From: Desulfotomaculum sp.
GTDB lineage: Bacteria; Bacillota; Desulfotomaculia; Desulfotomaculales; Nap2-2B
Length of the DNA stretch: 64,000 bases
Direction: 5' to 3'
Assembly (NCBI GenBank): GCA_003513005.1
Contig: DOTD01000092.1
Span: 11,845 to 75,844 of the forward strand
A program made the translations under genes and the position numbers. Positions 10,590 through 51,544 of this stretch are shown one piece after another. Within the stretch, counting starts at the first letter, position 1. Each line of letters opens with the position of its first letter. Under the pieces are notes generated by a model. It saw only the letters and a list, made by a program, of their open reading frames with translations, had not been told where the DNA came from and did no database searches.

Positions 10590-10626
10590 GTTTTTACAGG
10601 ATATTTGGGTATATTGAGGTTGAGGA

Positions 10627-10745: not shown

Positions 10746-10749
10746 TAAC

Positions 10750-19278: not shown

Positions 19279-19604
19279 AATCTTGGGTTTTTGAACCTGT
19301 AAGAGCTAGAGGAATAATCTCACAAACCATATTGGAGCTTTGCAGGACGAAGGACAACGTTTTATTTATATCACCATTTTCAACATTTGCTGAAAGTGGT
19401 TATTTTAGTGATATCCATCTAATCTGCCCTTGTTTCCTGGCAGATAAAGAAGGACATATTTGGCAGGATAGAGAATTTTATGTTGATAATCATTTTTCCA
19501 AAGAGGATGATGCCATACGTTTAGCATTAAAGAGTTTGTTGTGCCCAAGGACAGTATCTTTGATCAGGCCAGGAGGGATTCAATCCTTGACCTGTCGGAT
19601 TTAA
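19260..19604 (+). CDS. Hypothetical ORF upstream of / overlapping the DUF499 gene
   Basis: A 114-aa ORF with no motif I recognise. It is AT-rich and overlaps the neighbours on both sides. Coding status is uncertain. Confidence 0.2.
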   Translation: MGFQQYKSWVFEPVRARGIISQTILELCRTKDNVLFISPFSTFAESGYFSDIHLICPCFLADKEGHIWQDREFYVDNHFSKEDDAIRLALKSLLCPRTVSLIRPGGIQSLTCRI

Positions 19605-22603: not shown

Positions 22604-23258
22604 CAGCCGGTATTCGACAGGCTTTGGTTTTAATCCGGAAGAATCAGGCCATCATTTCCTTGTCACAATCCATACGGCCAGGTCGTCACATGTTTACATC
22701 AGCGAACATTTTACCTGGGATCACAGTCAAAAAAGGCGGGATCTGAGTTTTACCCTGGGAAACGAGGACGACAAAATGCGGGTAATTTTACCCCGCAGCA
22801 AATGGCTGGACATTGCGGAACACGTGCAGGATGAATTCAACCGGCGGCTGAAAAAAAACGGTATTGCGGCGGGCCGCTGGAAAACAGGGCAGACTCCCGT
22901 ATCGCGGCTGCTGGGCAAGGAAATGACGCTGCTGGCCTGGGCTGTCGAAGACGCCGATCCGGCCCTAATCCCAGCTGCTGTCAAAAACTGGCTCGGCCTG
23001 GCCCCTGAAGAGCGCTGGTGGCTGTTCACCATGACCAACGCCGCAACCGGCCACGCGATCAACGGGCGGAACAAAGGCTGGAGAAAGGCCGTACGGTATG
23101 CCCTGACGGAGAACCCGGTCTCAGACGCCGAACCGGCTGAGCCGCGCCATGAGCTGTTGTTAATTATGAAAGAGACACTGTCCTGGGCCGGAGAACTTGA
23201 ATTAGTCCATCCCAGGAAGCAGGAAACGGACGCCGGCAATGAAAAAATCGTTTATTGA
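22596..23258 (+). CDS. DUF3780-like small protein of the DUF499/DUF1156 module
   Basis: 220 aa, overlapping both neighbours. Position and size match the DUF3780 component that I recall in this operon type. The family call rests on synteny plus a general resemblance. Confidence 0.6.
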   Translation: MGSSRYSTGFGFNPEESGHHFLVTIHTARSSHVYISEHFTWDHSQKRRDLSFTLGNEDDKMRVILPRSKWLDIAEHVQDEFNRRLKKNGIAAGRWKTGQTPVSRLLGKEMTLLAWAVEDADPALIPAAVKNWLGLAPEERWWLFTMTNAATGHAINGRNKGWRKAVRYALTENPVSDAEPAEPRHELLLIMKETLSWAGELELVHPRKQETDAGNEKIVY

Positions 23259-26142
23259 AACGCAGTTCCCCGTATCAAAGATTTCCAAAGAAAGCTACAA
23301 GGAACGGAAGGCCAATTACAGCCAGACACTTACCGGACTGGGCAAATGGTGGGGACGCAAGCCGCTGATTTTGGCGCGCGCCGCGATCATTGGGTTGTTG
23401 GTGCCGGCATCCGATAATCAGGTCAAAGACCGGGAAATTTTCCTCAAGATTCTCACGATGGATGAGGAAGGGCTCTGGCTGCGCAAAGATAAGCTGATTA
23501 CGCTTAAAGAAGTATATAAACGGCTTGATCAGACCCAAAGGGAGCGGTGGTTTAAAAAGACATCTACCGAAGACAAGCCGAAATTAAAAAAAGGGACGAC
23601 CAGAGAACAAAGGAAAGAACTGCAGCGGATTGTTTTTATGCCCCTGTCTTATGACGAAAAACTTCAGTACTGCAGACGCCCCGAACAGATTAAGGGGCCT
23701 TCCGGAAAAGCCTGGACGGAAATCAACACACACCTGAATACCGCCGCAAACAATCTGCAGGAACTTGTTAGCCAATTAGGAAAACGGCGGTTCGGCCATA
23801 CGCCGCGCGTCGGTGACGCCTTTTGCGGAGGCGGCAGCATTCCTTTCGAGGCCGCGCGACTCGGCTGCGAAGCTTACGGGTCGGACCTCAACCCGGTGGC
23901 GGCGTTGCTCACCTGGGCGGCGTTAAATATCATCGGCGGGGGCGAAATAATCGCCAAGCAGGTCCGCCAGGCGCAGCAGGAGGTTTATAATACTGTAGAT
24001 CAGCAAATCACTGCGTGGGGTATTGAGCACAACAAAGAGGGACACCGGGCGGACGCCTACCTATACTGCAATGAAGCTGTCTGCCCCGGATGCGGCTGGA
24101 AGGTTCCGCTGGCGCCTTCCTGGATTATCGGTGAAAAGACGCGCTGCGTGGCAAAATTAAAGCCTGACGAAACCGGCAAGCGGTTTGATATACTTATCGA
24201 ATCGGGGGTTTCAAATGAAGAAATGGAAAATGCAAGAGCGGCCGGCACCGTAAAAGATTCCGCTTTGTGCTGCCCCAACTGCCTTCCTCATGCCACTCCC
24301 ATGACCATGCTGCGCGGTGACGGACGTGGCGGGAAAGAACAGTATGGCCTGCGGATGTGGGAAAACTGGGATATCGTGCCCCGCCCGGAAGACGTTTTTC
24401 AGGAACGACTCTACTGCATCCGTTGGGTTTACACATGTGAAGACGAAGAGGGCAAAACTATAACTGAACGCTATTACAGCGCTCCCGACGAGGACGATCT
24501 GCGCCGGGAGGAACTTGTTCTGGAACTTTTACAGGAGCGCTTTGCCGAATGGCAGGAAAAAGGGTATATCCCAAGCCGCAGGATTGAGCCAGGATATAAT
24601 ACTGATCAACCTCTACGTGAACGCGGCTGGACACATTGGCATCACCTGTTTAACCACCGGCAATTATTACTAAATGCATTGTTAATAGATAATGCATTTA
24701 GTAACTTTACTACTGAAAATATTCTATTATCATTTTTATTTAGTATGGGAAGATGCTCAGATTGGAATAGTAAACTTTGCCGTTGGGATTCTAGCTCTGC
24801 AAATGAAAAAATGGCGCAAACTTTCTACAATCAAGCTTTAAATACATTATTTACATATGCCACAAGAAGCTTGTCGAGTTTTAAAAGTCCCTTTTTTCTA
24901 AATTGGTCCGTTAATATTTTTAATAACACAAGAGTTGTCTCAGCTAAAGATGCTCGCCAAAATGATCATTATTGTGATATCTGGTTAACTGACCCTCCAT
25001 ATGCCGATGCTATTAACTACCATGAACTGTCGGAATTTTTTATTGCCTGGTATGATAAACATATAAAAATATTTTTCCCTGAGTGGTACACAGACAGTAA
25101 ACGTGCGCTTGCCATCACCGGATCAGATGAGAATTTCCGCAAAAGTATGGTCGATTCATACCGCAACCTTGCCGAGCATATGCCGGTCGATGGGGCGCAG
25201 ATCGTTATGTTTACCCACCAGGATTCCGGAGTATGGGCGGATCTGGCATTAATTCTCTGGGCTGCCGGTTTGAGCGTAACAGCGGCCTGGTGCATAGCCA
25301 CCGAAACAGATTCCGCATTAAAAGAGGGCAATTATGTCCAGGGGACGGTGCTGCTGGTGCTGCGCAAGCAGACCTCCCTTGAAACGGCCTTTACTGATGA
25401 GATATACCCGCAGGTGGAAGAGGAAGTTAAGAACCAGTTAAATGAGATGCTGGCCCTGGAAGACCTGGAGGACCCCAATTTCAGCGACACCGATTACCAG
25501 CTTGCCGCTTACGCCGCCGCCCTGCGTGTTTTGACAAGGTACCGGAGCATAGAAGACATTGACGTGGCCGGGGAACTGGCCAGGCCCAGGCAGCGGGGCG
25601 AGCAGTCCCCTGTAGTGGACATTATCAACCGCGCTGTGGAAATTGCCTGCGATCACCTGGTTCCGAAGGGCATGGAGATATTCACTTGGAAAGGCCTTTC
25701 CCCGGAAGAAAGGTTCTACCTCAAGGGGCTTGAACTGGAGAGCCACGGGGAGCGCCGCTCAGGGGCTTACCAGGAGCTTGCCCGCGGTTTCGGGATCAGG
25801 GATTACCGTCAACTTCTGGAAGGCAGCCGGGCTAATCAGGCCAGGTTGAAAACAGCCTCCGAATTTGCCGCCAGGCAGTTGGAAAACACCGGTTTCGGCG
25901 CCACGCTTGTGCGCCAGGTTTTATTTGCCATCCGGGAGTCGGCGCACACGGGCGAAATTGCGCAAGGACGCAACTGGTTTTATAACGAACTTCAAGGCTT
26001 GTACTGGAATAAGCGCCAAACTATAATTCAAATCCTTCATTACCTAGCCGCGCTTGGATCTAACAAAAATATGCCCCACTGGCGGGATGACTCCAATGTG
26101 GCCAGGATTTTAGCGGGCGCGTTGAAAAATGACCATATTTAA
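23239..26142 (+). CDS. DUF1156 (COG1743-type) N6-adenine DNA methyltransferase with Zn-ribbon insertions
   Basis: The N-terminus is IETQFPVSKISKESYKERK...WWGRKPL. Motif I is DAFCGGGSIPFEAARLG. Cys pairs are CPGCG..CCPNC. Motif IV is DPPYADAINY. Confidence 0.85.
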   Translation: MKKSFIETQFPVSKISKESYKERKANYSQTLTGLGKWWGRKPLILARAAIIGLLVPASDNQVKDREIFLKILTMDEEGLWLRKDKLITLKEVYKRLDQTQRERWFKKTSTEDKPKLKKGTTREQRKELQRIVFMPLSYDEKLQYCRRPEQIKGPSGKAWTEINTHLNTAANNLQELVSQLGKRRFGHTPRVGDAFCGGGSIPFEAARLGCEAYGSDLNPVAALLTWAALNIIGGGEIIAKQVRQAQQEVYNTVDQQITAWGIEHNKEGHRADAYLYCNEAVCPGCGWKVPLAPSWIIGEKTRCVAKLKPDETGKRFDILIESGVSNEEMENARAAGTVKDSALCCPNCLPHATPMTMLRGDGRGGKEQYGLRMWENWDIVPRPEDVFQERLYCIRWVYTCEDEEGKTITERYYSAPDEDDLRREELVLELLQERFAEWQEKGYIPSRRIEPGYNTDQPLRERGWTHWHHLFNHRQLLLNALLIDNAFSNFTTENILLSFLFSMGRCSDWNSKLCRWDSSSANEKMAQTFYNQALNTLFTYATRSLSSFKSPFFLNWSVNIFNNTRVVSAKDARQNDHYCDIWLTDPPYADAINYHELSEFFIAWYDKHIKIFFPEWYTDSKRALAITGSDENFRKSMVDSYRNLAEHMPVDGAQIVMFTHQDSGVWADLALILWAAGLSVTAAWCIATETDSALKEGNYVQGTVLLVLRKQTSLETAFTDEIYPQVEEEVKNQLNEMLALEDLEDPNFSDTDYQLAAYAAALRVLTRYRSIEDIDVAGELARPRQRGEQSPVVDIINRAVEIACDHLVPKGMEIFTWKGLSPEERFYLKGLELESHGERRSGAYQELARGFGIRDYRQLLEGSRANQARLKTASEFAARQLENTGFGATLVRQVLFAIRESAHTGEIAQGRNWFYNELQGLYWNKRQTIIQILHYLAALGSNKNMPHWRDDSNVARILAGALKNDHI

Positions 26143-26213
26143 AATTATAAATCTGTAATAAAGCAATTTATCATGCTATCTAACTAACCAATCAAAGTAA
26201 CGAGGTAAGCGAC

Positions 26214-28895
26214 TTGATTAACCGATTTTCCTCAAGGCGGCAAAAACTGGATTATTCTTTCCTAAAAGGCCGGTTGACCGGCGCGCAGGCATACGACCGC
26301 ATAGCTGGCTATTTTCGTTCCTCTATGCTGGAAGTAGCCGGTGAGGCTTTGGAAACTGTCACCGGGCCTGTGCAGGTGGTCTGCAACTCCGATTTGGAAC
26401 TGCGGGATGTAGAAACAGCCAGGGCCGCCCAGTATGCCATGAGGCGTGAGTGGTGCGAAGCAGAGCCGGAGAAATACGGCCCGGCCTCCCAGCCGCGGCT
26501 TTCCAAATTATTTGAATTGCTGTATTCCGGAAAGCTTCAGATCCGGGTTATGCCGCGTGAAAAATTCGGCTTGATACACGGTAAGGCCGGAGTCATCACA
26601 CTGAGTGACGGACGCAGGACTTCTTTTATCGGGAGCGCTAACGAAACATACAGCGCCTGGAAAATGAATTATGAAATCATCTGGGAAGACGATTCCGCAG
26701 AAGCGGTCAAATGGGTACAGGAGGAGTTCGACGCGCTCTGGAACAGCCCCTTCGCGATATCTCTATCCGACTTTATAATCCAGGACATCGGCCGGCTGGC
26801 GCGCCGCGTGGTAATTCCCAGCGTTGAAGACTGGCGGCGGGAGCCGGATCCATCAATGACTGTTATCGAAACTCCTGTTTACCGCCGGGAAAACGGCCTG
26901 TGGGAACACCAAAAATATTTTGTACAGCATGCATTTGAAGCGCACAAAAGGAACGGCGCCAGGCTTGTCCTGGCTGATATGGTAGGTTTGGGGAAAACTG
27001 TACAGCTGGCGCTGGCAGCCCAGTTAATGGCTCTTTACGGAAGCAGGCCTGTGCTCATCCTGGCGCCTAAAACACTGCTCCTGCAATGGCAGGATGAGAT
27101 GAAAAACCTGCTTGATATGCCGTCCGCCGTGTGGAACGGCAAGCAATGGATAGACGAAAACGGGATTGAATACCCGGTTATGGGTCCCGAGGGGATAAGC
27201 AAGTGCCCAAGAAGAATTGGCGTGGTATCAACGGGACTTATCATCAGCAAATCAGAAGTCGCCGAGTTACTTAAACAGATTAACTATGAGTGTATAATCG
27301 TGGATGAGGCGCACCGTGCGCACCGTAACAACCTGGGACCGGGCAAAGAGGCTGAAAAACCAGAACGCAATCATTTGTTGGACTTTCTAGATCAGGTGGC
27401 TGCCCATACGAAAAGCATGTTACTGGCCACGGCGACTCCGGTACAGAAAGACCCGGTAGAGGCGTGGGACCTTCTGGATGTGCTTTCCCGCGGAAACGAG
27501 GAAGTCTTCGGCGCTCGTTTCAGCAACTGGAGAAGGCCAGGCGAAGCGTTAGACCTTGTATTGGGGTCTATGGAACTGCCCGAAGATGATTTTGATCGCT
27601 GGAGCTGGATAAGAAACCCGCTGCCTCAAGCATCGGAAGAGCGTGATTTTGGATTGATCCGCCGCTCACTGCGCATGGCGGACAGTGATAATGTAGCGCC
27701 GTCCGAAGCGTGGCATACGATGAGCGAAGCTGATCGCAGCAGGATAAGACGGCTTTCCAGGTCTTTCGTACAACGGTACAATCCTTTTATCCGCCATATC
27801 GTCATGCGAACCAGGGATTTTTTAGAAAACACCATCGACCCTGAAACTGGCGAACCGTATTTAAAAAGAGTAAAGGTAGAGCTTTTTGGAGAAAAAGAGA
27901 AAGAAGCCGTCCGCCTGACCCCTTATTTAAAAGAAGCATATGAACTGGCCGGGGAATTTTGCAGACTGCTTGCGGCACGTTTAAAAACAGCCGGTTTTCT
28001 TAAAACTCTTTTACTCAAGAGAGTGGGCAGCACAATCTACGCGGGAAAATTGACGGCCGAAAAAATGTTAAGAGACTGGCAATATGTAGTTAAAGAGGAT
28101 AATGAAGAAGATGAACAGGTTCCTGATATTAACGACATAAAAACCCTGACACAGGAAGAAAGGGAAGTTCTCCAAAGATTTGTACAAGCCTTAAGCGCGG
28201 AAGAGCGGGATCCCAAGTATGAAGTTATTCTTGACTGCTTGACGGAAAAAGGCTGGCTGGAACAGGGCTGCATTATTTTCTCACAGTACTACGACTCCAT
28301 TTTTTGGCTGGCTGAAAACTTATCAAAGGAATTGCCTGAAGAAAATATCGGCATATACGCCGGCGACGAGAGGTCCTCTATAATAAAGAACGGCTGTATG
28401 GTTAGGGCGGCCAGGGATGAACTTAAAAGGCTGGTTTCCAAAGGTTCGTTAAGATTATTACTGGGAACAGATGCGGCAAGCGAAGGAATCAATTTGCAGC
28501 GTTTGGGCACGTTGATTAATCTCGACCTTCCCTGGAACCCGACCCGGTTGGAGCAGCGCAAAGGAAGGATCCAGCGGATCGGTCAAACAAGAGACACTGT
28601 TTTAATATATAACCTCAGGTACAAGGACTCTGTAGAAGACCGTGCCCATGAACTGCTTTCTGATCGCATGGAAGAAATCTTCAGGCTGTTTGGGCAAATC
28701 CCGGACGTATTGGAGGATACCTGGGTGTACCTGGCTTTGGGAGAAATCGAACAGGCCAAAAAGACAATCGACTCTATTCAAAAAAAGCATCCGTTTGACA
28801 TCAAATATAACCAGATAGAAAAGGTTCCCTGGGAATCCTGCGAACGTGTGCTAGACTCCGCAGACCGCCGCAAATACCTGACCCAGGGATGGTAA
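26214..28895 (+). CDS. PLD-like nuclease domain fused to an SNF2-family helicase
   Basis: N-terminal HKD-like LIHGKAGV...FIGSANET. Helicase motifs GLGKT, DEAH (IIVDEAHRAH), TATP and QRKGRIQRIGQ. A TTG start follows GAGGT. Confidence 0.85.
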   Translation: MINRFSSRRQKLDYSFLKGRLTGAQAYDRIAGYFRSSMLEVAGEALETVTGPVQVVCNSDLELRDVETARAAQYAMRREWCEAEPEKYGPASQPRLSKLFELLYSGKLQIRVMPREKFGLIHGKAGVITLSDGRRTSFIGSANETYSAWKMNYEIIWEDDSAEAVKWVQEEFDALWNSPFAISLSDFIIQDIGRLARRVVIPSVEDWRREPDPSMTVIETPVYRRENGLWEHQKYFVQHAFEAHKRNGARLVLADMVGLGKTVQLALAAQLMALYGSRPVLILAPKTLLLQWQDEMKNLLDMPSAVWNGKQWIDENGIEYPVMGPEGISKCPRRIGVVSTGLIISKSEVAELLKQINYECIIVDEAHRAHRNNLGPGKEAEKPERNHLLDFLDQVAAHTKSMLLATATPVQKDPVEAWDLLDVLSRGNEEVFGARFSNWRRPGEALDLVLGSMELPEDDFDRWSWIRNPLPQASEERDFGLIRRSLRMADSDNVAPSEAWHTMSEADRSRIRRLSRSFVQRYNPFIRHIVMRTRDFLENTIDPETGEPYLKRVKVELFGEKEKEAVRLTPYLKEAYELAGEFCRLLAARLKTAGFLKTLLLKRVGSTIYAGKLTAEKMLRDWQYVVKEDNEEDEQVPDINDIKTLTQEEREVLQRFVQALSAEERDPKYEVILDCLTEKGWLEQGCIIFSQYYDSIFWLAENLSKELPEENIGIYAGDERSSIIKNGCMVRAARDELKRLVSKGSLRLLLGTDAASEGINLQRLGTLINLDLPWNPTRLEQRKGRIQRIGQTRDTVLIYNLRYKDSVEDRAHELLSDRMEEIFRLFGQIPDVLEDTWVYLALGEIEQAKKTIDSIQKKHPFDIKYNQIEKVPWESCERVLDSADRRKYLTQGW

Positions 28896-29091
28896 TCCTT
28901 GCCTTTTTCCTTGCTTATTTGCCCACCCAACCTGTAATATAATAATAAAGAGTAAAATTCTTGTAATCATAAAACAGGAAATTTTTTTATATTTGTCGTA
29001 TTATATAGAAAAACAAATGAAAAACAATCATTTATAAATTTACGTAACAACCACAGCCCAAGAATTTTAAAGATTTAAGAGGCGCAGTTTT

Positions 29092-30108
29092 TTGGGTACT
29101 TTTAACGAGCTACATTTTGAAAATGAATTCTATTTTCAATGGCACATAACAGAAAGGTGCAACCTCAGGTGTAAACACTGTTATCATAATAATTATGACT
29201 CTGAAGGCGAATTAAGTTCGGAGGAACTTTTATCGGTTTTAGACATATTAGATAGCACAGCCACCAAGTGGGGCAAGCTCGCTACACTGTCAATAACCGG
29301 CGGAGAGCCGCTTCTACGGTTAAATGAAATTAAACAGATAGCAGACAAAATAGTATCAAAAAAACACATTTATTATTTTGACCTCCTTACAAATGGAACC
29401 CTATTAGATAAGGACACTCTTTCCTTCCTGTCAAAGTCGAAAAAGTTGCGCAGGGTGCAGCTTTCCCTTGAAGGGCCTAACTCTACAAAAAATGACGACA
29501 TTCGTGGCCATGGAAACTTCGAAAAAATCCTATCTGCTATAGCATCCCTTAGAGAATATCAAATACCAATCTGTATCATGGTTACACTTACTCGTGACAA
29601 TTGGGAGGACATTCCAGGAATAGTTAAATTGGCTGTAGATTATGGTGTTAATTATCTTAGCTTTGAAAGATTTATCCCTGAAGGTAAAGGAAAACAAGTC
29701 AAAGAAAAAATATTAAGCCGGAATGAGCTGAAATCAGCCAACCAGTTAATTGCCAGATTATCGCAAGAAGAAAATCGTGTAAAATTTTTAACTTACCGTC
29801 CTCTTTTTGCTCTTTGCGGCGACGCTTTCGGTGCCATGTGTTCTATTGGTACAAATGCTCTTACCATTATGCATGACGGTACTGTATACCCTTGCCGGCG
29901 CTTACCGATACCATTGGGTAACATTCTAAGTGACGGACTGTATAAAATATGGTATGGTTCTGATTTATTATGGGAAATCCGCAATTCCCGCAACCTGAAG
30001 GGTAAGTGCAACAATTGCGAATTGCTGCCTGTTTGCCGTGGTTGCCGTGCAGCGGCTTATTATCTAAACGGAGATTACCTTGCGGAGGACCCTCAATGTT
30101 GGAAATAA
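29092..30108 (+). CDS. Radical SAM / SPASM-domain peptide-modifying enzyme
   Basis: CNLRCKHC (CxxxCxxC) near the N-terminus. The C-terminal SPASM-type Cys cluster is ..CSIGTNALTIMHDGTVYPCRRL..CNNCELLPVCRGCRAAAY..DPQCWK. First gene of the AT-rich island. Confidence 0.85.
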   Translation: MGTFNELHFENEFYFQWHITERCNLRCKHCYHNNYDSEGELSSEELLSVLDILDSTATKWGKLATLSITGGEPLLRLNEIKQIADKIVSKKHIYYFDLLTNGTLLDKDTLSFLSKSKKLRRVQLSLEGPNSTKNDDIRGHGNFEKILSAIASLREYQIPICIMVTLTRDNWEDIPGIVKLAVDYGVNYLSFERFIPEGKGKQVKEKILSRNELKSANQLIARLSQEENRVKFLTYRPLFALCGDAFGAMCSIGTNALTIMHDGTVYPCRRLPIPLGNILSDGLYKIWYGSDLLWEIRNSRNLKGKCNNCELLPVCRGCRAAAYYLNGDYLAEDPQCWK

Positions 30109-30392
30109 AACCACAGTCAAAGTTCAAACTAAACGAAGATTTTATCTTACACCAAATAGAGGAACTAGATAAATACTGGCTTTTCAATATTGTTAATGGT
30201 GACATCTTTAACCTTAATGATGTCTCCATGTTTATTTTACAAAAGATAAGTGAAGGAAATAACTTTGAATCATTGGTTTTTAAACTGCTTCAACAATTTG
30301 ACGTTGATGAAAACAGGGCACAAAATGATCTTCAAAAAATATTACGGCAGTTATTTCATGAAAAAATTATTAGCCAAATAAAGGAGGATTAA
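30096..30392 (+). CDS. PqqD-family peptide chaperone (RiPP recognition element)
   Basis: The 98-aa protein starts at the internal ATG 30096 and overlaps the rSAM stop. ..FILHQIEELDKYWLFNIVNGDIFNLNDVSMFILQKI.. fits the PqqD/RRE pattern. Confidence 0.7.
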   Translation: MLEIKPQSKFKLNEDFILHQIEELDKYWLFNIVNGDIFNLNDVSMFILQKISEGNNFESLVFKLLQQFDVDENRAQNDLQKILRQLFHEKIISQIKED

Positions 30393-30394
30393 CC

Positions 30395-30526
30395 ATGGTT
30401 AAAAAGCCCTATAAGGAACCAGTTTTGGAAAAGCAGGAATCTATGCGCATTGCAGAAGAAACTATTGAAAAAGCCACGGGAAAACTTATCTGCAAACAAT
30501 GCTCATCCTGTCATGGTTGCAGATAA
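30395..30526 (+). CDS. Unannotated 43-aa Cys-rich precursor-like peptide
   Basis: It is not in the ORF track because it is shorter than 60 aa. The ATG lies 2 nt after the PqqD stop and AAGGAGG is 7 nt upstream. Translation: MVKKPYKEPVLEKQESMRIAEETIEKATGKLICKQCSSCHGCR*. Confidence 0.6.
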   Translation: MVKKPYKEPVLEKQESMRIAEETIEKATGKLICKQCSSCHGCR

Positions 30527-30570
30527 TTTCTGATTACTGTTTATTTGTTTTTTGCCTAGGGGGTTGAGAA

Positions 30571-33459
30571 ATGATTATTGATCGTAAAGAACTAACTGAT
30601 CTAGATTTTGAAACCTTGAATATTATTTATGATATTTTTATTGATGATGAGAATTACCAAAATATAGATGTAAAATGCAATGATCGTGATATTTTAGCTG
30701 ACTTTAACGAACTAGAAGATACCAACCAACATGGGTTGGTTATTCAAAAACTCCGAAATTATGAAAAGTGTTCATTAAAAATAGATGATAAAGCTATATC
30801 TAATCATGCCACTACTTTTTGGAAACATCTTTTTTTAGCTAAGAAAACACGTGCCATTTTACAAAGCATTGGAACCAATGAGGCTTCTAAACTTATAGAT
30901 GAAATTGCTGAATATTTACTTTCGAAATTACCTGATATATACGAGCAAGATTTTGGCATTATTAAATGCAAAGAAGAACCCCAAGATTTTGGACAGAAAA
31001 AATTTCTTATTCTCTTCTATAATGAAATTAGCCAGTGTTGTTCTGGGTATCTGAATACTGGTTATGCTGAGAAATCCTTAAAGTACTATCCTGAAGAAGC
31101 CTGTCATTATGAATTACTTGGGTTATATAATAAAGCTCTTGGGTTGTCACATCACGAGAATAAAGAGAGCAGGGAAAATGCATTAAAACATTATGATGAA
31201 ATAATAAATACTTTTAAAATAAAAAAGGAGGGAGAAAAATATCTTGGGTACGGATATGATTTCGATACAGATTTATGGAAGATGTATGTTTATTTACCAG
31301 CAATATATCATAAGGCTGAAGTACTAATTAAACTACAAAGAGGAAAAGAAAGCATAGATATACTCAATACTTTTATAAAGAAATATAAGAATTATAATGT
31401 TCCTAGATTTATTTTTTTATCAACCGAGTATAAAATAATAGACAGTATGATACTAAAGGTTCATGCGATGCTTGAAAGCTCTAATTTAAATGTTAATGAA
31501 GAAATAAAAAATATAGAAATAATGCTTGAAACACATAAAGAAAATTATGATATCCAGAGGAAATATAATTTCTTAATAGCCAAGCTTAATATTGAGGACA
31601 CAAGAGAAAATCTAAGTAGTAAAAAAAACGAAGAAATATATAAATTTCTTAAAGAAACTATATATAATAATTTATTTAAAGAAGAAAGAAATGAAGATGA
31701 AAGAACACAAGCTTCATTTTATTGGCTAGAAGCATTTCAGTTATACATAAAAGCATCAAAAAATAAAAATCATGAAAAAGGAAAGGATCTATTAGAGGAT
31801 TTATTAGGTACTTTAATAGATATCTTAAATTATATTTTTGAGAGACTCAAACAAGACCCATGGATTCCAAACAAAGAGAAGATTCTAAAACTAATAGTGG
31901 AAATATTCGAAGAAATAAATGATGATGACAGTATTACAAATGATGATTGTCGCCAAAAAATTAAAGATATAGAGATAAGATATTGTCATAGACTTACTCA
32001 CAAAGAAAACAAACCCTCCAGTTATCAAAAAGTCAAATCAGTTCGAAGGCTATTATTATTAGGCGAGAATAACAAAGAGGCTGAAATGGATTATAATTTT
32101 CCCGATAGACTTGAAATAGTTAAGGACTTTGCAAATATTATTATTAATAAGGATTATTATACTCAATGTTTGCGATACAATACTGAAAAATTTGACAAAA
32201 ATTTAATATATAGTAGCTATTGGCCACAACTCACTGGGCGTTATGCATTTACAGTATTGCGAAAATGGCAGTCTTTTACACCAGCTCTTGGGAGTTACTC
32301 AACTAGTAGTAGAGGTGGAGGTTATTTTGTTTACAAAGTAGGTGACAATGGTAATATAGAAGATGGGGTAGTTGTTGATCCCGGTTATGATTTTATCGAA
32401 AATTTTATTGAGCATAACTTTTCCATAAAGGATATTACTGCAATTGCCATAACACATTCACACATAGATCATTCTGTTGATTTTCGCGGCCTTATGACAC
32501 TAATTCATGAGATGAACAAAAGAGGAGTCAGAAAATTATATAAATGGCCTCCCAAAAAAGTAACAGTGATACTAACACCATCGTGTTTCGATCATTTTTT
32601 TCAGATAATATCAGACAGCCGCGATTATATCAAGGATGTTATAGTTGTTGATCCTGATAGACACAATCTAGTTGAAACTGAATTATATGAAATTGGAAAT
32701 GAGAAGATACATTTCTATCTAAGCGCGGTTCCTGCGTATCATAAAGATTTACAAGAAAATGCCAATTGCGTAGGTTTAATACTAAGGGATAATAATGATA
32801 ACAAAATAATTGGTTTTACAGGTGATACTGTTTGGACTCACAGCCTATACAAGCGATTAAAAGATTGCTCAGTTATCTGTGCTAATATGGGAGCCCTTAT
32901 TGATGTAAATAAAGGAGACAGTTTTGAAAAAACATTTGATCAGAAAGATAAGGAGCATAAAAAGATCAAAAAGCTTATATATAAGGAGAATCATCTTTAT
33001 CTCCCAGGAATAATCACTTTATTAGATGAAATCCAAAAAACAAGTAAAACAAAAATAACTGTAGTAGGAGAACTCGGTGAAGAACTAAAATCTGGCTTAA
33101 GAAAAGATTTATTTCATAAATTTAATCAGTTTATAGATGAAAGGACTAGTAATCAATATGGAGGCAACTATCCATATAAATGGCAACGTGAAATATTATA
33201 TCCTTATCCACTTGTTGCAATTGAAGATATTAATCTAACAATTACATGGGAGACACAAAGTGCTGAGCCATATATAAGATGTACACGTTGCAAGAGAATA
33301 ATTCCACCAGACAAAGTAATGCTTCGCGTAACAAATGACGATCGAAAAAGTGAACAATTATTCTATTATTGTAAAGAATGTCTTGAATTAATAGAGTCAT
33401 TGGAAAGCGGAGTGGAAAGAGAATGGGAGAAGCGTTATTTACCGCCACATCAAGTCTGA
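30571..33459 (+). CDS. 962-aa protein: long K/E/N-rich helical N-terminal region + metallo-beta-lactamase fold + C-terminal Zn ribbon
   Basis: HxHxDH motif AITHSHIDHS at ~aa 625, followed by GDTVW and ENHLY-type ligand regions. The C-terminus is CTRCKR...YYCKEC. I recognise nothing in the N-terminal ~560 aa. Confidence 0.7.
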   Translation: MIIDRKELTDLDFETLNIIYDIFIDDENYQNIDVKCNDRDILADFNELEDTNQHGLVIQKLRNYEKCSLKIDDKAISNHATTFWKHLFLAKKTRAILQSIGTNEASKLIDEIAEYLLSKLPDIYEQDFGIIKCKEEPQDFGQKKFLILFYNEISQCCSGYLNTGYAEKSLKYYPEEACHYELLGLYNKALGLSHHENKESRENALKHYDEIINTFKIKKEGEKYLGYGYDFDTDLWKMYVYLPAIYHKAEVLIKLQRGKESIDILNTFIKKYKNYNVPRFIFLSTEYKIIDSMILKVHAMLESSNLNVNEEIKNIEIMLETHKENYDIQRKYNFLIAKLNIEDTRENLSSKKNEEIYKFLKETIYNNLFKEERNEDERTQASFYWLEAFQLYIKASKNKNHEKGKDLLEDLLGTLIDILNYIFERLKQDPWIPNKEKILKLIVEIFEEINDDDSITNDDCRQKIKDIEIRYCHRLTHKENKPSSYQKVKSVRRLLLLGENNKEAEMDYNFPDRLEIVKDFANIIINKDYYTQCLRYNTEKFDKNLIYSSYWPQLTGRYAFTVLRKWQSFTPALGSYSTSSRGGGYFVYKVGDNGNIEDGVVVDPGYDFIENFIEHNFSIKDITAIAITHSHIDHSVDFRGLMTLIHEMNKRGVRKLYKWPPKKVTVILTPSCFDHFFQIISDSRDYIKDVIVVDPDRHNLVETELYEIGNEKIHFYLSAVPAYHKDLQENANCVGLILRDNNDNKIIGFTGDTVWTHSLYKRLKDCSVICANMGALIDVNKGDSFEKTFDQKDKEHKKIKKLIYKENHLYLPGIITLLDEIQKTSKTKITVVGELGEELKSGLRKDLFHKFNQFIDERTSNQYGGNYPYKWQREILYPYPLVAIEDINLTITWETQSAEPYIRCTRCKRIIPPDKVMLRVTNDDRKSEQLFYYCKECLELIESLESGVEREWEKRYLPPHQV

Positions 33460-34241
33460 CTTCGATGTTAAAGACAGGATTAGACAAAAAAATTGATCCT
33501 GAAAGAATAGCTAGGGTAGGAACAGTATTATTAGAAGAAATACCAGTCACTGAGAACACAATTTTTACTAATATAGCTGACTATATAGTAAATAGACAGT
33601 CAGTAGATGGCGGATGGGTTGATGTTGAAGAAACGGCCTGGTCAATAGCATATTTACGAAAAATATCTGGAGAATATGAAGGCCCTTTTAATAAAGGGCT
33701 TAACTGGTTGGCTGAACAAAGAATATCCGGGGCGGGATGGGGAAGGAATAACCGAGATACGCCAAGGATACCATATACCTCATGGGTTGCCATACTGTGC
33801 CCGGAACTTATAGATAAAGAAGTATTAAAATGGTTGGAAAAAACCTGTAATGATGAGATAAAGCTAGAACCAAGACTGACTTATAAAATAGCCCTGCCAA
33901 TTTTGGCTTTTAGCAAGCATAAATATTCAACTCAAAATCCGGAGTTAGTTAATTCTTTAATTTCTTTTCTTATTTCCTCCCAAAATGACGACGGCGGCTT
34001 TGCCCCCTGGCGTGATCATCCGTGCGGCAGTGACCCCTGGTGTACTTCAGTTGCGGCGTTGGGACTGTTGGCACATGCGGATAGGGTCCCAGAAGTTATT
34101 TTTGAAAACTCATTGAACTGGTTACTAAAAAACCAGCTCCCTAACGGAATGTGGCCCTATCATTACATTGATGAGGGAACAGCTTTAGCTTATTGGGCGT
34201 TAAAAGAAATGCTAATTCATTTCAAGAGAAAAGAACATTAA
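33423..34241 (+). CDS. Prenyltransferase-beta / terpene-cyclase-like alpha-alpha toroid repeat protein
   Basis: Four QW-like repeats: QSVDGGW, EQRISGAGWG, SQNDDGGF, NQLPNGMW. A Cys pair HPCGSDPWC is also present. The start is uncertain (33423 or 33465). Confidence 0.6.
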   Translation: MGEALFTATSSLTSMLKTGLDKKIDPERIARVGTVLLEEIPVTENTIFTNIADYIVNRQSVDGGWVDVEETAWSIAYLRKISGEYEGPFNKGLNWLAEQRISGAGWGRNNRDTPRIPYTSWVAILCPELIDKEVLKWLEKTCNDEIKLEPRLTYKIALPILAFSKHKYSTQNPELVNSLISFLISSQNDDGGFAPWRDHPCGSDPWCTSVAALGLLAHADRVPEVIFENSLNWLLKNQLPNGMWPYHYIDEGTALAYWALKEMLIHFKRKEH

Positions 34242-34242
34242 T

Positions 34243-36000
34243 ATGTGTGGTATTTGTGGGGTTTACGGCAGCAACGATCTAAAAAAGATAGAACTGATGA
34301 CCTCAACCATAGCCAACCGCGGACCAGACGCAAGCTTTGTAAAAATAATTGGGGGCAAACATACACTTGGAAGCGCAAGGCTTCATATTACTGGTCAATT
34401 AGATGCTCCTTTTCCTTATTGCCGCGACGAAATTGGGCCTCAAGTACTATTAAACGGCGAAATCTATAATTATCGCTTTTGGCAAAAAAAACTTGAAGAC
34501 GAAGGTTATACTTTCTTTACTGGTACTGATACCGAAGTCATCTGGGCAATGTACCATAAATACGGGTTGGAATTTGTCAATAAAATAAAAGGAATGTTTG
34601 CCATTGCAATTCTTGACGGCGACAGGCTTATTTTGGTTAGAGACAGGTTTGGAATAAAACCGCTCTTTTATTGCCAGAGAGGAAATGAGCTTGCTTTTGC
34701 TTCAGAAATAAAAGCATTGTTAAGATGGACCGACCGTCAACCCCATTTAAACGAATCAGCTTTGCAAGAGATTTTAACTTTTGGTTATATTTATTCTTCG
34801 GATGAAACGCTTTTTGTTGGAATAAAGCAGGTTACCCCCGGAGAAGTTCTAATTTTTGATGGAAATGAAATTTGTTCCGAAAACTATTCTGTCCCGCCAA
34901 CCGCTTTTTCTTCTCCGGGCACAAATGAAGACTATTACTTCCATAAAACACTGCTTTCTAATACCTTACCTGCCGCTATGAGGTTGGTTACTGAACATGG
35001 CGCTCATGAAGTCGGCGTTTATCTTTCAGGCGGCGTAGATTCATCTTTAATGGCTGTGCTTTGTAAAGAAATACACGGGAAAATTAAAACTTTCCATCTT
35101 ACGGACAGCCATCATGCACCGGACCTGCCCTGGTCCAGGGATGTTGCAAAGGCAATAAATAGCGATCATTATGAAATACCTGTTACTTTGCAGGATTATC
35201 TAGCTGAACTGCCAAAATTCGTCTACCATTATGAAAATATTGTTGCCGGCGGTGTTTTTGACTTGCAGGGTGGTGTGGCTTTTCATCTACTTTGCAAAAA
35301 AGCCTCCCAGCATGTCAAGGTTGCCTTAACAGGAGAGGGCGCAGATGAACTCTTCGGCGGATATTATTGGACATACACACACCCGCTTGGTTTCGCCGAC
35401 CGTTTGCGTATACGCCTGAAAGAAGCTGTAAAGAACGTTCCGAATGATAAACTGGCTATATTGGTGAACCAGCTTTTCCCGCTTCCCGAGGACGAATTAC
35501 AGTATCGCTTAAATATTTTCAATGCATTATTAAAAAGCGCATTATCAAATTATCATCTCTGGAGTGTCGACCGTTCATCAGGCGCTTTTGGTTTTGAAAT
35601 CCGACCATTTTATTTGTATGAGGATATAGTAAAACTGGCTGGTGATATGCCGGTAGAATACAAAGCCCCAAAACCCGGCGTCACAAAGCTGCTGTTAAAA
35701 GACGCTGCAATGAATTTTTTTGCCCGTTATGGCCTGGAAGCTATTTGTAACAGAAAGAAATTTGGCATGCCTGCTGCGCTTAATCAACTCGACAATCAAG
35801 TAAGGATTTTTATTAACAACAATGTTAGCGACGCTTATGTTCAACGTCACTATTACAAACAATACCTGACGAACAAAATTGATATATTTATGTTCGATTT
35901 ATTTTTTTACTTTTACTTTCATAAAAACGGAAATTTTGAACCGGCTTTCTGCCTGGAGGAAGCCTTGGCAGGTGGTCTATTTGAAAATATGTATAGTTAG
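34243..36000 (+). CDS. Asparagine synthetase B-like glutamine amidotransferase / adenylating enzyme
   Basis: MCGICG N-terminal nucleophile Cys2 (class II GATase) and SGGVDSS PP-loop. Confidence 0.85.
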   Translation: MCGICGVYGSNDLKKIELMTSTIANRGPDASFVKIIGGKHTLGSARLHITGQLDAPFPYCRDEIGPQVLLNGEIYNYRFWQKKLEDEGYTFFTGTDTEVIWAMYHKYGLEFVNKIKGMFAIAILDGDRLILVRDRFGIKPLFYCQRGNELAFASEIKALLRWTDRQPHLNESALQEILTFGYIYSSDETLFVGIKQVTPGEVLIFDGNEICSENYSVPPTAFSSPGTNEDYYFHKTLLSNTLPAAMRLVTEHGAHEVGVYLSGGVDSSLMAVLCKEIHGKIKTFHLTDSHHAPDLPWSRDVAKAINSDHYEIPVTLQDYLAELPKFVYHYENIVAGGVFDLQGGVAFHLLCKKASQHVKVALTGEGADELFGGYYWTYTHPLGFADRLRIRLKEAVKNVPNDKLAILVNQLFPLPEDELQYRLNIFNALLKSALSNYHLWSVDRSSGAFGFEIRPFYLYEDIVKLAGDMPVEYKAPKPGVTKLLLKDAAMNFFARYGLEAICNRKKFGMPAALNQLDNQVRIFINNNVSDAYVQRHYYKQYLTNKIDIFMFDLFFYFYFHKNGNFEPAFCLEEALAGGLFENMYS

Positions 36001-37048
36001 TAAATTCCCGCCAATTCAGGGAGGTATAGCTTCTAAAACATATTGGCTTGCCCGTGGTTTGGCTGAGGCAGGCCTGGAAGTTCACGTAGTAACCAATGCC
36101 TTGGCTGTTGAAGATGATTATAAGATTGGATCCTGCGGGAAAGATTTTCTTTTACCGGAAGGAATATTCATTCACAATATAGAACAAGAAACACCCTGGC
36201 ATATCCCGTATTCAAAACTTTTTCAAGAAAAATTGCTTAACAAATTACTGGGTGTATGTAACCAATACAAAATAGATCTTATCGACAGCCATTACCTTAT
36301 TCCCTATGGAATAGCCGCTTTTTTGGCAGGCACAATTACCGGGATACCGTATATTGTCCGGCATGGAGGCAGTGATTTAGCCAAATTTTGGGACAAAGGA
36401 CTATTAAACGAGCTGTTGAAAAGAACACTTTCAAACGCATCCGCTATAGTAACTGACAAAACAGACTTGGGCATTCTTAACAACAACTTGGTCAATCTTC
36501 CCCGTTATGTCCCGGATGAACGTTACTTTCATCCGGAAGCCAAAGAAGAAAATCAGATTAGCTTTGCATATATCGGCAAAATAAATTATTATTGGCAGCA
36601 TAAGGGTCTTGACAGAATTCTAAGTTATTGGGACGGATTTTCATTTGATTCAAGCCTGTTTTTCTTAGCCCAAGGGAAAGGCAAAGCTGATTTTTTAGCT
36701 CAATATAAGCCGGATAAAGTAAAATTTCTAGATTTTATTCCTCCCTGGAAAATGCCGTCCTTCCTACAAAAGATTGATTTTCTATTTCATTTAGTTAATG
36801 ATAATCCTATCCCCGATTTTTCTAACATTGTTGTTGAAGCAGTCGCCTGCGGTGCTAAAATTTTAACGGATAATCCATCTGCATTTATTTGTTATGAGGA
36901 ATATTTTGATGTTAATAAATATGTTTTGTCCGTAGATAATTTTAGTATTAATCACAATATAACTAAGGCTGAACAGCCTTTAAAAATTAAATATGCCACA
37001 TATATTAAACAAAATATCGAGCTTTACCGGAAAGCCTGCGCGCTATAA
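35981..37048 (+). CDS. GT-B fold glycosyltransferase (GT4-like)
   Basis: I prefer the TTG at 35981, which gives MKICIVSKFPPIQGGIASKTYWLARGL. This is a typical GT4 N-terminus. It overlaps the AsnB-like stop. Confidence 0.7.
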   Translation: MKICIVSKFPPIQGGIASKTYWLARGLAEAGLEVHVVTNALAVEDDYKIGSCGKDFLLPEGIFIHNIEQETPWHIPYSKLFQEKLLNKLLGVCNQYKIDLIDSHYLIPYGIAAFLAGTITGIPYIVRHGGSDLAKFWDKGLLNELLKRTLSNASAIVTDKTDLGILNNNLVNLPRYVPDERYFHPEAKEENQISFAYIGKINYYWQHKGLDRILSYWDGFSFDSSLFFLAQGKGKADFLAQYKPDKVKFLDFIPPWKMPSFLQKIDFLFHLVNDNPIPDFSNIVVEAVACGAKILTDNPSAFICYEEYFDVNKYVLSVDNFSINHNITKAEQPLKIKYATYIKQNIELYRKACAL

Positions 37049-37261: not shown

Positions 37262-37291
37262 TTGATATTACTGAATTTAAAATGTTATAAT
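37262..37291 (+). promoter_or_regulatory. Sigma-A promoter candidate with extended -10
   Basis: TTGATA (37262-67), an 18-nt spacer, then TGtTATAAT (-10 at 37286-91), about 45 nt upstream of the next gene. Confidence 0.45.
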
Positions 37292-37336
37292 CTGGTTTGA
37301 GACAACGTTAAAAAAGTATGAATAGGAGCGGTGGAT

Positions 37337-37822
37337 ATGTCTTGGAATATTGAACTAAAAGAACAAAACCTTCAACCGATATTATTTATCAAAGCCAAGA
37401 CTTCTTTGGAAGGTCTGCAGAAAATAATCGGGGAAAGCTATACGAAAATAATAGCCTATCTGACTGAACTGGGTGAACAGCCGGCATTTGCCCCTTTTAC
37501 CGCTTATTACAACCTTGACATGCAGAACCTTGAAGTCGAACTTGGGTTCCCTGTTGCCAAACAATTGCCGGGGAAAGAGGAGATTCTCTCCGGGCAGATA
37601 CCGCCGGGCCGGGTGATTTCCTGTGTGTATAAAGGGTCATACGCAGGCATGGAGAAATTATACACCGAAATGTTCGAATGGATCGCTGAGCACGGCTATG
37701 AGTTTCTCGGTGTTTTTTATGAATATTACTTGAACTCGCCGATGGAGGTCCCAGAAAGCGAATTATTAACCCGCATCGACCTGCCCATTAAAACAATCCC
37801 TTGCTCCGGCGGCAGTGAATAA
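37337..37822 (+). CDS. GyrI-like small-molecule-binding domain protein
   Basis: The pattern ..PILFIKAKTSLEGLQKIIGESYTKIIAYLTELG..FTAYYNLDMQNLEVELGFPV.. is typical of the effector-binding (GyrI/SbmC-like) fold. The ATG at 37337 follows TAGGAG. Confidence 0.65.
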   Translation: MSWNIELKEQNLQPILFIKAKTSLEGLQKIIGESYTKIIAYLTELGEQPAFAPFTAYYNLDMQNLEVELGFPVAKQLPGKEEILSGQIPPGRVISCVYKGSYAGMEKLYTEMFEWIAEHGYEFLGVFYEYYLNSPMEVPESELLTRIDLPIKTIPCSGGSE

Positions 37823-51425: not shown

Positions 51426-51544
51426 ATTATACATATTATATACTATAATTAAGACAAATTCCCTGCAAAAAAGTGAAAGATTTTTAAAGCAGCGATATAC
51501 GCTGCTTGTTAGGTAACATGATCTATAGTCTTAAAACCAAAATT

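Follow-up and report, generated by a model that had tools for sequence, protein, structure and literature searches.

Ranthipeptides and sactipeptides (SCIFF/CteB, PapB, SkfB) are peptides made by the ribosome and modified post-translationally (RiPPs) whose pathways join a radical S-adenosylmethionine (rSAM) enzyme with a SPASM domain to a short precursor bearing a Cys-rich core at its C-terminus. In the case of SCIFF the precursor is unusually conserved and the cluster is not known to encode an exporter or a protease. Mycofactocin and pyrroloquinoline quinone (PQQ), which are intracellular products, come from a precursor of invariant C-terminus, a PqqD-type chaperone and an rSAM/SPASM enzyme. 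Lasso peptide pathways have a stand-alone PqqD-type RiPP recognition element (RRE), and the YxxP(xL) leader motif is the handle held by RREs of this type (PMC10368454, PMC13381572). In nitrilobacillins an asparagine-synthetase-like enzyme, PesC, acts on the RiPP's C-terminal carboxylate (PMC13060819), and an anti-phage role has been described for a lanthipeptide family (bioRxiv 10.1101/2024.06.26.600839). We analyze here a cassette of seven genes found in a 64,000-nucleotide stretch of Desulfotomaculum sp. contig DOTD01000092.1 (positions 11,845 to 75,844, referred to as the window), which encodes an rSAM/SPASM enzyme, a PqqD protein, a 43-aa peptide, a metallo-beta-lactamase (MBL) fold protein, an alpha/alpha toroid, an AsnB-type amidotransferase and a glycosyltransferase (GT). 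The seven genes are a conserved unit, and very probably a functional unit of RiPP type. Based on comparisons with NCBIfam, PADLOC and the literature, the cassette is a candidate for a new class of RiPP, one whose obligatory hydrolase partner is unusual. The explanation we favor, for and against which the arguments appear to us evenly balanced, is that of a new RiPP-type pathway whose product would be retained in the cell and would work with a phosphodiesterase, probably in a conflict role.

An earlier reading of the window, which ran no database searches (the sequence-only reading), had listed seven co-directional genes, tightly packed or overlapping, and all of them exist; every domain that it named was confirmed by open reading frame (ORF), Pfam and NCBIfam analyses. 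In a comparison with a relative locus that is 95% identical (L001; L numbers designate related loci), the ratio of nonsynonymous to synonymous substitutions (dN/dS) was 0.02–0.27 across all seven; they are real coding genes under purifying selection. A genome scan with the 962-aa MBL protein alone gave nothing, as its 8-mers came from poorly conserved stretches, and the toroid alignment was used instead. The toroid-seeded scan gave 27 loci in species-representative genomes, all of them metagenome-assembled genomes (MAGs) of anaerobes, and 219 metagenome relatives from which 80 loci were kept. All loci were mapped with BLAST; there are 105 non-redundant toroid loci, 50 of which span the rSAM to the GT gene and are called complete cassettes below. 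A total of 121 related loci from at least ten lineages were examined.

The loci with rSAM homologues at 95, 77, 65, 55, 54, 53 and 50% identity each contain the full gene set, and the rSAM-seeded loci, three on long contigs among them, show the same cassette amid differing genomic surroundings. In every locus on an adequate contig, whether rSAM-seeded or toroid-seeded, the triad of rSAM, PqqD and peptide is joined by the toroid, AsnB-type and GT genes, which answers the question raised by the sequence-only reading of whether the triad keeps this company elsewhere. Toroid and AsnB-type genes are present in all 50 complete cassettes (the latter full-length in 31 and reduced to the synthetase domain in 19), PqqD is present in 49, and the gene order of the window is the commonest one (14 loci). 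The bacterial hosts, among which are Desulfobacterota and Planctomycetota, comprise Firmicutes (Pelotomaculum and Thermoanaerobacteraceae included), Smithella, Syntrophobacter, Desulfobacterales, Thermodesulfovibrionales, Bacteroidales, Dehalococcoidales, Sedimentisphaerales, KSB1, Actinomycetota, Aquicultor, Coriobacteriia and a bin labelled Levybacteria; one host, Ca. Methanoperedens, is archaeal. That unrelated genes came to lie together by accident in an AT-rich accessory region, for which only the heterogeneity of the enzyme set speaks, is virtually impossible: it is refuted by the recurrence of the same set, mostly in the same order, in 50/50 complete loci of distant lineages, and the overlapping or abutting genes and the purifying selection on all of them are against it as well. 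The coordinates of the genes and of other features mentioned below are given in Table 1.

Table 1. Positions of the cassette genes and of other features in the window and in related loci.
Locus	Feature	Position	Strand	Remarks
Window	Radical SAM/SPASM peptide maturase, 338 aa	29092..30108	+	Pfam Radical_SAM 90.2 bits, SPASM 41 bits
Window	Stand-alone PqqD-family RRE, 98 aa	30096..30392	+	PF05402 44.3 bits
Window	Precursor peptide, 43 aa: MVKKPYKEPVLEKQESMRIAEETIEKATGKLICKQCSSCHGCR	30395..30526	+	AAGGAGG upstream; conserved in homologues
Window	TPR-like–MBL–zinc ribbon protein, 962 aa	30571..33459	+	Pfam Lactamase_B_2 39.1 bits; fold matches
Window	Single-domain alpha/alpha toroid, class II terpene-cyclase-like, 272 aa	33423..34241	+	AF2 model and Foldseek
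Window	Glutamine-hydrolysing AsnB-type amidotransferase, 585 aa	34243..36000	+	TIGR01536; GATase_7 and Asn_synthase domains
Window	GT-B family-4 glycosyltransferase (GT4), about 358 aa	35972..37048	+	Glyco_trans_4_4 46.3 bits vs cut-off 29.7
Window	AT-rich intergenic region between defence module and cassette	28896..29091	+	Presumed site of the cassette promoter
Window	BREX-related/Hma-like defence module: DUF499 ATPase, DUF3780, DUF1156 methyltransferase, PLD-SNF2 helicase	19541..28895	+	Context, outside the cassette
Window	SLH-domain protein	15561–16226		Upstream of defence module
Window	SbcC/SbcD-like genes and two DDE transposases	3506-7740 (-), 13374-14384 (+), 17183-18835 (-)		Upstream of defence module
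Window	GyrI-like small-molecule-binding gene	37331-37822		Downstream of cassette; own near-consensus promoter 37262–37291 (11/12 matches plus TG)
Window	Flavin reductase gene	37860-38447		After the GyrI-like gene
Window	Moco/Tuco riboswitch aptamer (RF01055)	51316-51435	-	One of three within 6.5 kb, 56–65 bits
Window	Moco/Tuco riboswitch aptamer (RF01055)	57327-57447	-	As above
Window	Moco/Tuco riboswitch aptamer (RF01055)	57699-57818	+	As above
L077	Two precursor genes, identical cores	3814-3957, 6000-6140		Cassette carries both HD-motif and MBL proteins
L007	HD-motif protein	10213-12060		
L016	Small P-loop protein, ~165 aa	13649-14140		Walker A GIGNIGKS
L016	N6_N4 DNA methyltransferase, 240 aa	6174-6914		PF01555 73.6 bits; between precursor and MBL genes
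L003	DUF5131 gene	17984-18694		Abuts GT
L013	DUF5131 gene	3847-4599		Abuts GT
L004	DUF1156 fragment, 69 aa	18274-18483		Directly after GT; also in L005, L006

The peptide gene was found as the sequence-only reading had described it, a Cys-rich ORF starting 2 nt past the PqqD stop codon with a perfect AAGGAGG upstream, and its dN/dS against L001 is 0.02 with a synonymous divergence (dS) of 0.88. A small ORF of this kind adjoins the maturase wherever the contig extends far enough, and its presence next to each maturase examined, as 69 unique sequences, bears out its expected conservation. These precursors share a leader motif, Y-x-x-P followed by a hydrophobic residue, and a C-terminus of the form C-x-Q-C-[SA]-[SGR]-C-H-[GSA]-C-[RKS]; conserved without exception are YxxP, C-x-Q-C, C-H and the last Cys. 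The four core Cys residues lie at i, i+3, i+6 and i+9, and no Asp or Glu occurs in the core. From the leader Tyr to the first Cys there are 27 residues in 64 peptides and 28 in the other 5, a spacing that would suit a tethered core being delivered to an active site. The Lys-rich N-terminus has no hydrophobic stretch and no export signal is apparent by eye. The precursor is thus unusually constrained, spanning bacterial phyla and an archaeon, and to our knowledge it is among the most conserved of its kind. As expected for a RiPP pathway in general, a conserved short precursor lies beside the enzymes and an RRE is accompanied by a leader motif, from which a RiPP-type system is predicted. One cassette (L077) contains two precursor genes with identical cores.

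Concerning the enzymes that would act on this peptide, the translated rSAM protein has the motif CNLRCKHC and a full SPASM Cys set, and its CX3CX2C signature is kept in 49/50 homologues. No curated NCBIfam model reached its cut-off; the best was ACGX (TIGR04340) with 188 bits against a cut-off of 400 (192 bits for the rSAM of L007), followed by AhbD 167, SbtM 164, NirJ2 145, NirJ 137, ScmE 135 and GeoRSP 126 bits. The closest solved structures are SkfB, CteB, anSME and PqqE. The PqqD protein passes the cut-off of PF05402 (23.4 bits), and its best NCBIfam matches, all below cut-off, are lasso-peptide PqqD chaperones, with ScmD and GeoRSP PqqD also among the closest models. The AsnB-like gene belongs to the asparagine-synthase family, as first supposed, with 292.6 bits against the TIGR01536 cut-off of 267.1. 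The N-terminal MCG is conserved in 45/48 homologues and the SGGxDS PP-loop in 48/48 by one count and 83/83 by another. Since the glutaminase Cys is retained, the enzyme is an amidotransferase and not a lactam cyclase of the lasso type. The GT is weakly similar to BshA. Its start is most likely the GTG at 35972 and not the first TTG at 35879, because a GGAGG at 35956–35960 lies 11 nt upstream of the GTG and homologues are 355–358 aa long. The catalytic motifs of the enzymes are preserved throughout the family.

The 962-aa protein consists of a helical part resembling tetratricopeptide repeats (TPR) at about residues 84–500, an MBL domain at about 555–860 and a C-terminal CxxC…CxxC zinc ribbon. 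The MBL domain was recognized by PF12706 (39.1 bits against a cut-off of 27), its metal motif THSHIDH (HxHxDH) is kept in 37/39 homologues and the zinc ribbon in 35/39. The confidence of the AlphaFold2 (AF2) model was moderate (predicted local distance difference test, pLDDT, 69). As fold matches of the MBL part Foldseek returned RNase Z, Apyc1, ZipD and PDE1; for the N-terminal part it returned the TPR superhelices of OGT, LGN and IFIT1. The MBL domain itself was therefore correctly recognized at the outset; the parallel then drawn with PqqB was not sustained, because the domain resembles the RNase Z/Apyc1 phosphodiesterases and no PqqB structure appeared among the 50 best fold matches. The curated RNase Z model TIGR02651 was not reached either (27.8 bits against 293), and a profile search of the family against PDB sequences gave only marginal MBL matches. 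Residues 260–410 of the TPR-like part are hypervariable, with 36–39% identity and dN/dS of up to 0.73 between the window and L001.

In other cassettes the MBL protein is replaced or accompanied by a protein of 580–620 aa (L007, with homologues in L023, L026, L031, L032, L017, L021 and L029) that shows invariant H..H / HD / NH / HD / D residues in the alignment and so looks like a member of the HD superfamily. Homology of a 615-aa HD-motif protein with the N-terminal half of the MBL protein was considered and discarded, as hhalign gave a probability of 0.2 and the two are unrelated. Among the 50 complete loci, 29 contain only the MBL protein, 16 only the HD-motif protein, 5 both and none neither. 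If the HD-motif assignment is right, this alternation of two non-homologous proteins, of which at least one is always present, argues for phosphoester hydrolysis as an integral activity of the system.

The toroid gave a confident AF2 model (pLDDT 91.9), a single alpha/alpha barrel resembling one domain of class II terpene cyclases, and weak squalene-cyclase/prenyltransferase repeats in Pfam and NCBIfam. Its best PDB match by Foldseek was drimenyl-diphosphate synthase (E = 4e-7, template modelling score, TM, 0.67), followed by squalene-hopene cyclase and MstE (to E 1e-4, TM 0.6–0.7) and then by thioester (TED) domains. The QW-repeat alpha/alpha toroid fold that had been claimed is thus real, whereas the likeness to prenyltransferases gives way to one with class II terpene cyclases. 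With these it shares the alpha/alpha-barrel fold and QW-type repeats; no DxDD motif is visible in the toroid alignment, and the two-domain beta-gamma architecture is absent too. Neither LanC nor a prenyltransferase was among the 50 best fold matches, and both identifications were rejected. The toroid proteins form a small, distinct family: at E ≤ 1e-30, 62 of the 1.84 billion cluster representatives belong to it. No relatives were found in viral contigs, a phage collection or a plasmid collection, so a phage-borne or plasmid-borne origin is not supported.

The pathway that we consider most plausible would proceed as follows. PqqD, as the RRE, would bind the leader YxxP and place the core C-x-Q-C-S-S-C-H-G-C-R in the active site of the rSAM/SPASM enzyme, which would perform radical chemistry on the Cys-rich core. 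The outcome would most likely be intramolecular thioether cross-links (Cys–S–C) such as sacti/ranthipeptides have, since these are the commonest outcome for the rSAM/SPASM class; we regard thioether chemistry as possible, somewhat short of probable. The AsnB-type enzyme would adenylate and amidate a carboxylate, and as the only carboxylate of the core is the C-terminal one, a C-terminal amide is tentatively predicted. GT4 could then add a sugar, for which the near-invariant Ser or a Cys are candidate sites, and the terpene-cyclase-like toroid could be a further tailoring enzyme or a peptide-binding scaffold. The product would probably remain in the cell, because the cassette has neither protease nor exporter, and would probably be a ligand or cofactor of the TPR-like–MBL–zinc ribbon phosphodiesterase, or of the HD-motif protein that replaces or joins it. 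For a cell-retained product coupled to the hydrolase in this manner we judge the chances to be about equal on both sides.

The same core suggests a different kind of product for anaerobic metabolism, namely a cofactor derived from the peptide, or a prosthetic peptide that binds metal or haem, which would serve as a small redox or metal carrier. The four Cys and the His of the core would ligate a metal or be thioether-linked to a tetrapyrrole in the cytoplasm by an rSAM similar to AhbD or NirJ, and AsnB would amidate tetrapyrrole or peptide carboxylates, in parallel with PQQ and mycofactocin. All 69 precursors contain CXXCH, in the form C-[SA]-[SGR]-C-H, and a JGI record labels the peptide 'cytochrome c2' because CXXCH is the c-type haem attachment motif. 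In addition, the core is conserved across phyla as in cofactor precursors and unlike those of antimicrobial RiPPs, the rSAM has near-matches to AhbD, NirJ2 and NirJ, the hosts are all anaerobes, and the cassette contains no exporter or protease. However, the distribution is patchy and resembles that of a mobile island, AT-rich and next to defence, restriction-modification and toxin–antitoxin genes; no cofactor-dependent oxidoreductase is conserved beside the cassette, and tetrapyrrole and cytochrome-maturation genes are absent from the recurrent flank families. It is not obvious where the obligatory RNase Z/Apyc1-like or HD-motif hydrolase would fit into a pathway of this sort, the peptide shows no signal sequence by eye, and we found no paper linking CXXCH with a radical-SAM RiPP. 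We therefore hold a cofactor to be unlikely. A further novel possibility is that the invariant CXXCH core becomes a cytoplasmic haem- or metal-peptide.

The sequence-only reading had seen no leader protease, ABC exporter or immunity gene in the island and had argued from this for an intracellular product. Pfam and NCBIfam scans agree that the island has none of these, and no transporter, protease or immunity gene occurs inside any of the 50 complete cassettes. The argument for an intracellular product is strengthened by the near-invariant core and by this absence, and weakened by the ABC exporters that lie near a few loci. A secreted antimicrobial or signalling RiPP similar to ranthipeptides, with its exporter, protease and immunity functions encoded elsewhere or provided by general host systems, would agree with the sacti/ranthipeptide architecture of rSAM/SPASM, RRE and Cys-rich C-terminal core and with the ABC, MatE or HlyD transporter genes that flank the cassette in a minority of loci. 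These transporters are conserved neither in family nor in position, though, and the core, which varies in antimicrobial RiPPs, is almost invariant here over at least ten lineages; together with the 0/50 count this makes secretion quite improbable. The GyrI-like gene downstream of the cassette was considered as an immunity gene and ruled out by its own strong promoter and its lack of conservation outside the window lineage.

Directly upstream of the cassette is a defence module, as originally noted, in which PADLOC identified DUF1156_MTase (E = 1e-298) and PLD_Helicase (E = 7e-241). In the syntenic copy of L001, Pfam places DUF499 and DUF3780 upstream of the DUF1156 methyltransferase/helicase. 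Methyltransferases with DUF1156 have been treated under 'Type-1 BR systems' (PMC12839542). Defence-related or mobile genes also neighbour the cassette in other loci: DUF1156, SIR2, SMC and DUF499 in L003, HmaC in L036, BrxC downstream in L020, a Type IIG enzyme and HKD-Snf2 in L016 and L046, PDC-S73 in L007, a DruE/BrxL-like protein in L033, MNT/HEPN, Phd/ParE and a 69-aa DUF1156 fragment in L004–L006, and a MobA/TraI relaxase in L039. Other neighbours belong to Type I, IIG and III restriction-modification systems, integrases and insertion sequence (IS) elements. Restriction-modification, helicase, methylase, toxin–antitoxin and mobile-element families came first in both of two independent flank censuses, one covering 144 ORFs of 26 loci and the other 97 ORFs of 24 loci. 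In 20/22 loci the AT content of the cassette exceeds that of its flanks; the cassette is widespread and, in our reading, horizontally mobile. The role in conflict systems that the sequence-only reading had thought conceivable gains support from these recurrent neighbours. Because defence islands are where the cassette is often found, its most likely role would lie in conflicts with phages or with mobile elements; the association is qualitative and suggestive, and a defence function is advanced as a best guess that is less likely than not to be right. A specific form of it, a new kind of anti-phage or anti-mobile-element system in which an rSAM-matured, amidated and glycosylated mini-peptide, as a built-in ligand or cofactor, arms or restrains a TPR-like sensor fused to the RNase Z/Apyc1-type phosphodiesterase, or its HD-motif equivalent, is rather unlikely in our view.

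The proximity of the two units could also mean that the cassette is an accessory of the adjacent BREX-related/Hma-like DNA-methylation system, for example by providing it with an effector or with a cofactor that has been modified. In the window lineage, L003 and L036 (with HmaC), DUF499/DUF1156-type modules directly precede the cassette and are co-directional with it, BrxC follows it in L020, a DUF1156 fragment abuts the GT in L004–L006, and an N6_N4 DNA methyltransferase is embedded in five cassettes. Yet most loci have no BREX-related gene within reach, and in the window the two units differ sharply in composition and are separated by a terminator-like hairpin at the stop codon of the helicase (28884–28901) and by a spacer of 197 AT-rich nt. 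Moreover, the paper on BREX-related systems (PMC12839542) does not mention radical SAM, PqqD or RiPPs. Such dependence is distinctly improbable. The 69-aa fragment, found in a Firmicutes MAG whose cassette is otherwise devoid of BREX-related neighbours, may be left over from an earlier position next to a DUF1156 methyltransferase.

Several observations weigh against the proposed cell-retained, hydrolase-coupled product and its conflict role. The rSAM scores about equally against tetrapyrrole enzymes (AhbD, NirJ) and peptide maturases. AsnB–GT4 pairs occur in polysaccharide loci, and AsnB could have a sugar acid as its substrate instead. No catalytic motif can be recognised in the toroid, and the 580–620-aa protein matches nothing in Pfam, NCBIfam or the PDB, its HD assignment being a motif pattern only. 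Some loci are adjoined by ABC exporters and some lie in housekeeping-gene surroundings. A defence neighbour was found in at least 15 of the 45 loci whose flanks extend for 3 kb or more, a figure without a background rate and a lower bound only, because the query set was small, our own, and gave mostly self-matches. When the cassette was scanned with PADLOC-DB v2, the rSAM gave a generic match to pVip models and the other five proteins scanned gave none (the 43-aa peptide was not included), so that no model is specific to any cassette protein. Finally, with regard to defence, all hosts are uncultured MAGs.

If the proposal is right, RiPP chemistry would serve immunity inside the cell rather than secreted antibiotics, and natural-product biosynthesis would be linked to prokaryotic immunity. 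The cassette would also stand for a candidate RiPP class with an unprecedented enzyme set, in which rSAM/SPASM, toroid, AsnB and GT4 are joined by an MBL or HD hydrolase that is obligatory. The action of an rSAM on a CxxCxxCHxC core and that of a single-domain cyclase-like barrel on a peptide would both be of enzymological interest. Protein names are generic or 'hypothetical' in every source: in the records of the source MAG (Desulfotomaculum sp. 46_80) the rSAM is just 'Radical SAM', and the entries looked up for the peptide, the PqqD protein, the MBL protein and the toroid are 'hypothetical', 'uncharacterized' or named after a generic domain. A common annotation as parts of one system could be given to hundreds of public proteins that are at present 'hypothetical' or 'radical SAM protein'.

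Additional genes accompany some of the cassettes. A gene of ~165 aa for a small P-loop protein is found in 17/50 complete cassettes, where it adjoins the GT or precedes the HD-motif protein, and no family model matches it. The embedded N6_N4 DNA methyltransferase occurs in 5/50 complete cassettes, in a sub-branch that includes L016, L025, L033, L034, L035 and L076. A DUF5131 gene abuts the GT with gaps of 4–23 nt in two loci (L003 and L013) and is similar to 'radical SAM mobile pair protein A', with 96 bits where the cut-off is 355.

The compositional break first noticed by eye, about one third against about one half G+C, is real: the mean G+C is 0.358 in the cassette and 0.477 in the remainder of the window. 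Values of 0.27–0.42 extend over about 28.9–37.3 kb, with about 0.50–0.54 to the left and to the right; the change is sharp at the left edge and gradual at the right one, G+C being 0.41–0.44 as far as about 38.5 kb. Within the cassette the PqqD gene overlaps the rSAM gene by 13 nt, and an AAGAGG lies 8 nt ahead of the TTG start of the latter. Only weak promoter-like matches were found in 28896–29091, and the promoter scan gave 41 against 32.8 ± 5.9 expected, not above chance. The segment from the peptide to the MBL gene (window 30395-33459 against L001 11304-14342) has a dS of about 0.86, compared with 0.12–0.24 in the flanking cassette and defence genes, and a recombination tract inside the cassette is deduced from this difference. 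No meaningful direct or inverted repeats flank the island, and no tRNA gene marks an integration site in the window. The surroundings had been described as an IS-rich zone, which is correct only in part; two DDE transposases are present, 10–15 kb upstream. Neither the GyrI-like nor the flavin reductase gene is conserved beside the cassette in other lineages. An SLH-domain protein gene upstream and three riboswitch aptamers of the molybdenum/tungsten cofactor (Moco/Tuco) type far downstream complete the features recorded in the window.

The cassette would work like a RiPP or peptide-cofactor pathway, to judge by analogy with the described systems, and differs from each of them. With the ranthipeptides and sactipeptides it has in common the rSAM/SPASM enzyme and the short precursor with its C-terminal Cys-rich core, and SkfB and CteB are the closest solved relatives of its rSAM. 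In CteB, however, the RRE is the N-terminal domain of the maturase, whereas it is a separate PqqD protein in the cassette. The models of these families remain far above the scores of the rSAM (PapB NF047865, 112 bits against 340; StsB, 78 against 625; ScfB-related, 73 against 855), the core motif is different, and the toroid, AsnB, GT4 and MBL/HD hydrolase have no counterpart there. The triad of precursor, PqqD-type protein and rSAM/SPASM enzyme is that of mycofactocin and PQQ, which also have one tailoring enzyme each of a similar broad class, a GT in mycofactocin and an MBL-fold protein in PQQ. Nevertheless, the rSAM falls short of MftC (TIGR03962, 123 bits against 265) and PqqE (106 against 381), and the PqqD protein of the PQQ model for PqqD (18.7 against 46). 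The precursor ends in CHGCR and not in GVY, it lacks the E-x3-Y of PQQ, and there are no MftD/E/F partners. The cassette GT is of family 4, no dependent dehydrogenases lie nearby, and the context is that of mobile and defence islands.

As in lasso peptides, there is a stand-alone PqqD-type RRE, a YxxP(x)[LF] leader and an AsnB-homologous enzyme. In contrast to them, the cassette has an rSAM, no leader protease of the B2 type and no Asp/Glu acceptor in the core, and its AsnB, with the glutaminase Cys kept, scored 96 bits against the 525 of the lasso cyclase model NF033535. With PesC of the nitrilobacillins and the asparagine-synthetase-like amidation enzymes compared with it (PMC13060819), the cassette shares an AsnB-family gene beside a precursor with an available C-terminal carboxylate. 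It differs in that 19/50 cassettes carry the synthetase-only form without the glutaminase domain, and in the partners, which are MNIO and HExxH enzymes there, and rSAM, toroid and GT4 in the cassette. The rSAM/SPASM systems with PqqD named ACGX, GeoRSP and SynChlorMet provide the closest NCBIfam models and have anaerobic hosts as well, with scores far under the curated cut-offs. Their precursor motif and accessory genes differ from those of the cassette. With c-type cytochromes the precursor shares CXXCH and neither an export signal nor, among the recurrent flank families, the maturation genes. The sequence-only reading could not assign the gene combination to any described RiPP or cofactor class, and this holds after comparison with ranthipeptides, mycofactocin, PQQ, lasso peptides and ACGX. 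No NCBIfam system model reaches its cut-off, PADLOC gives only the generic rSAM match, and our literature search found no paper describing the cassette. The anti-phage lanthipeptides have an entirely different enzymology, and they are likewise RiPP clusters in neighbourhoods that resemble defence islands.

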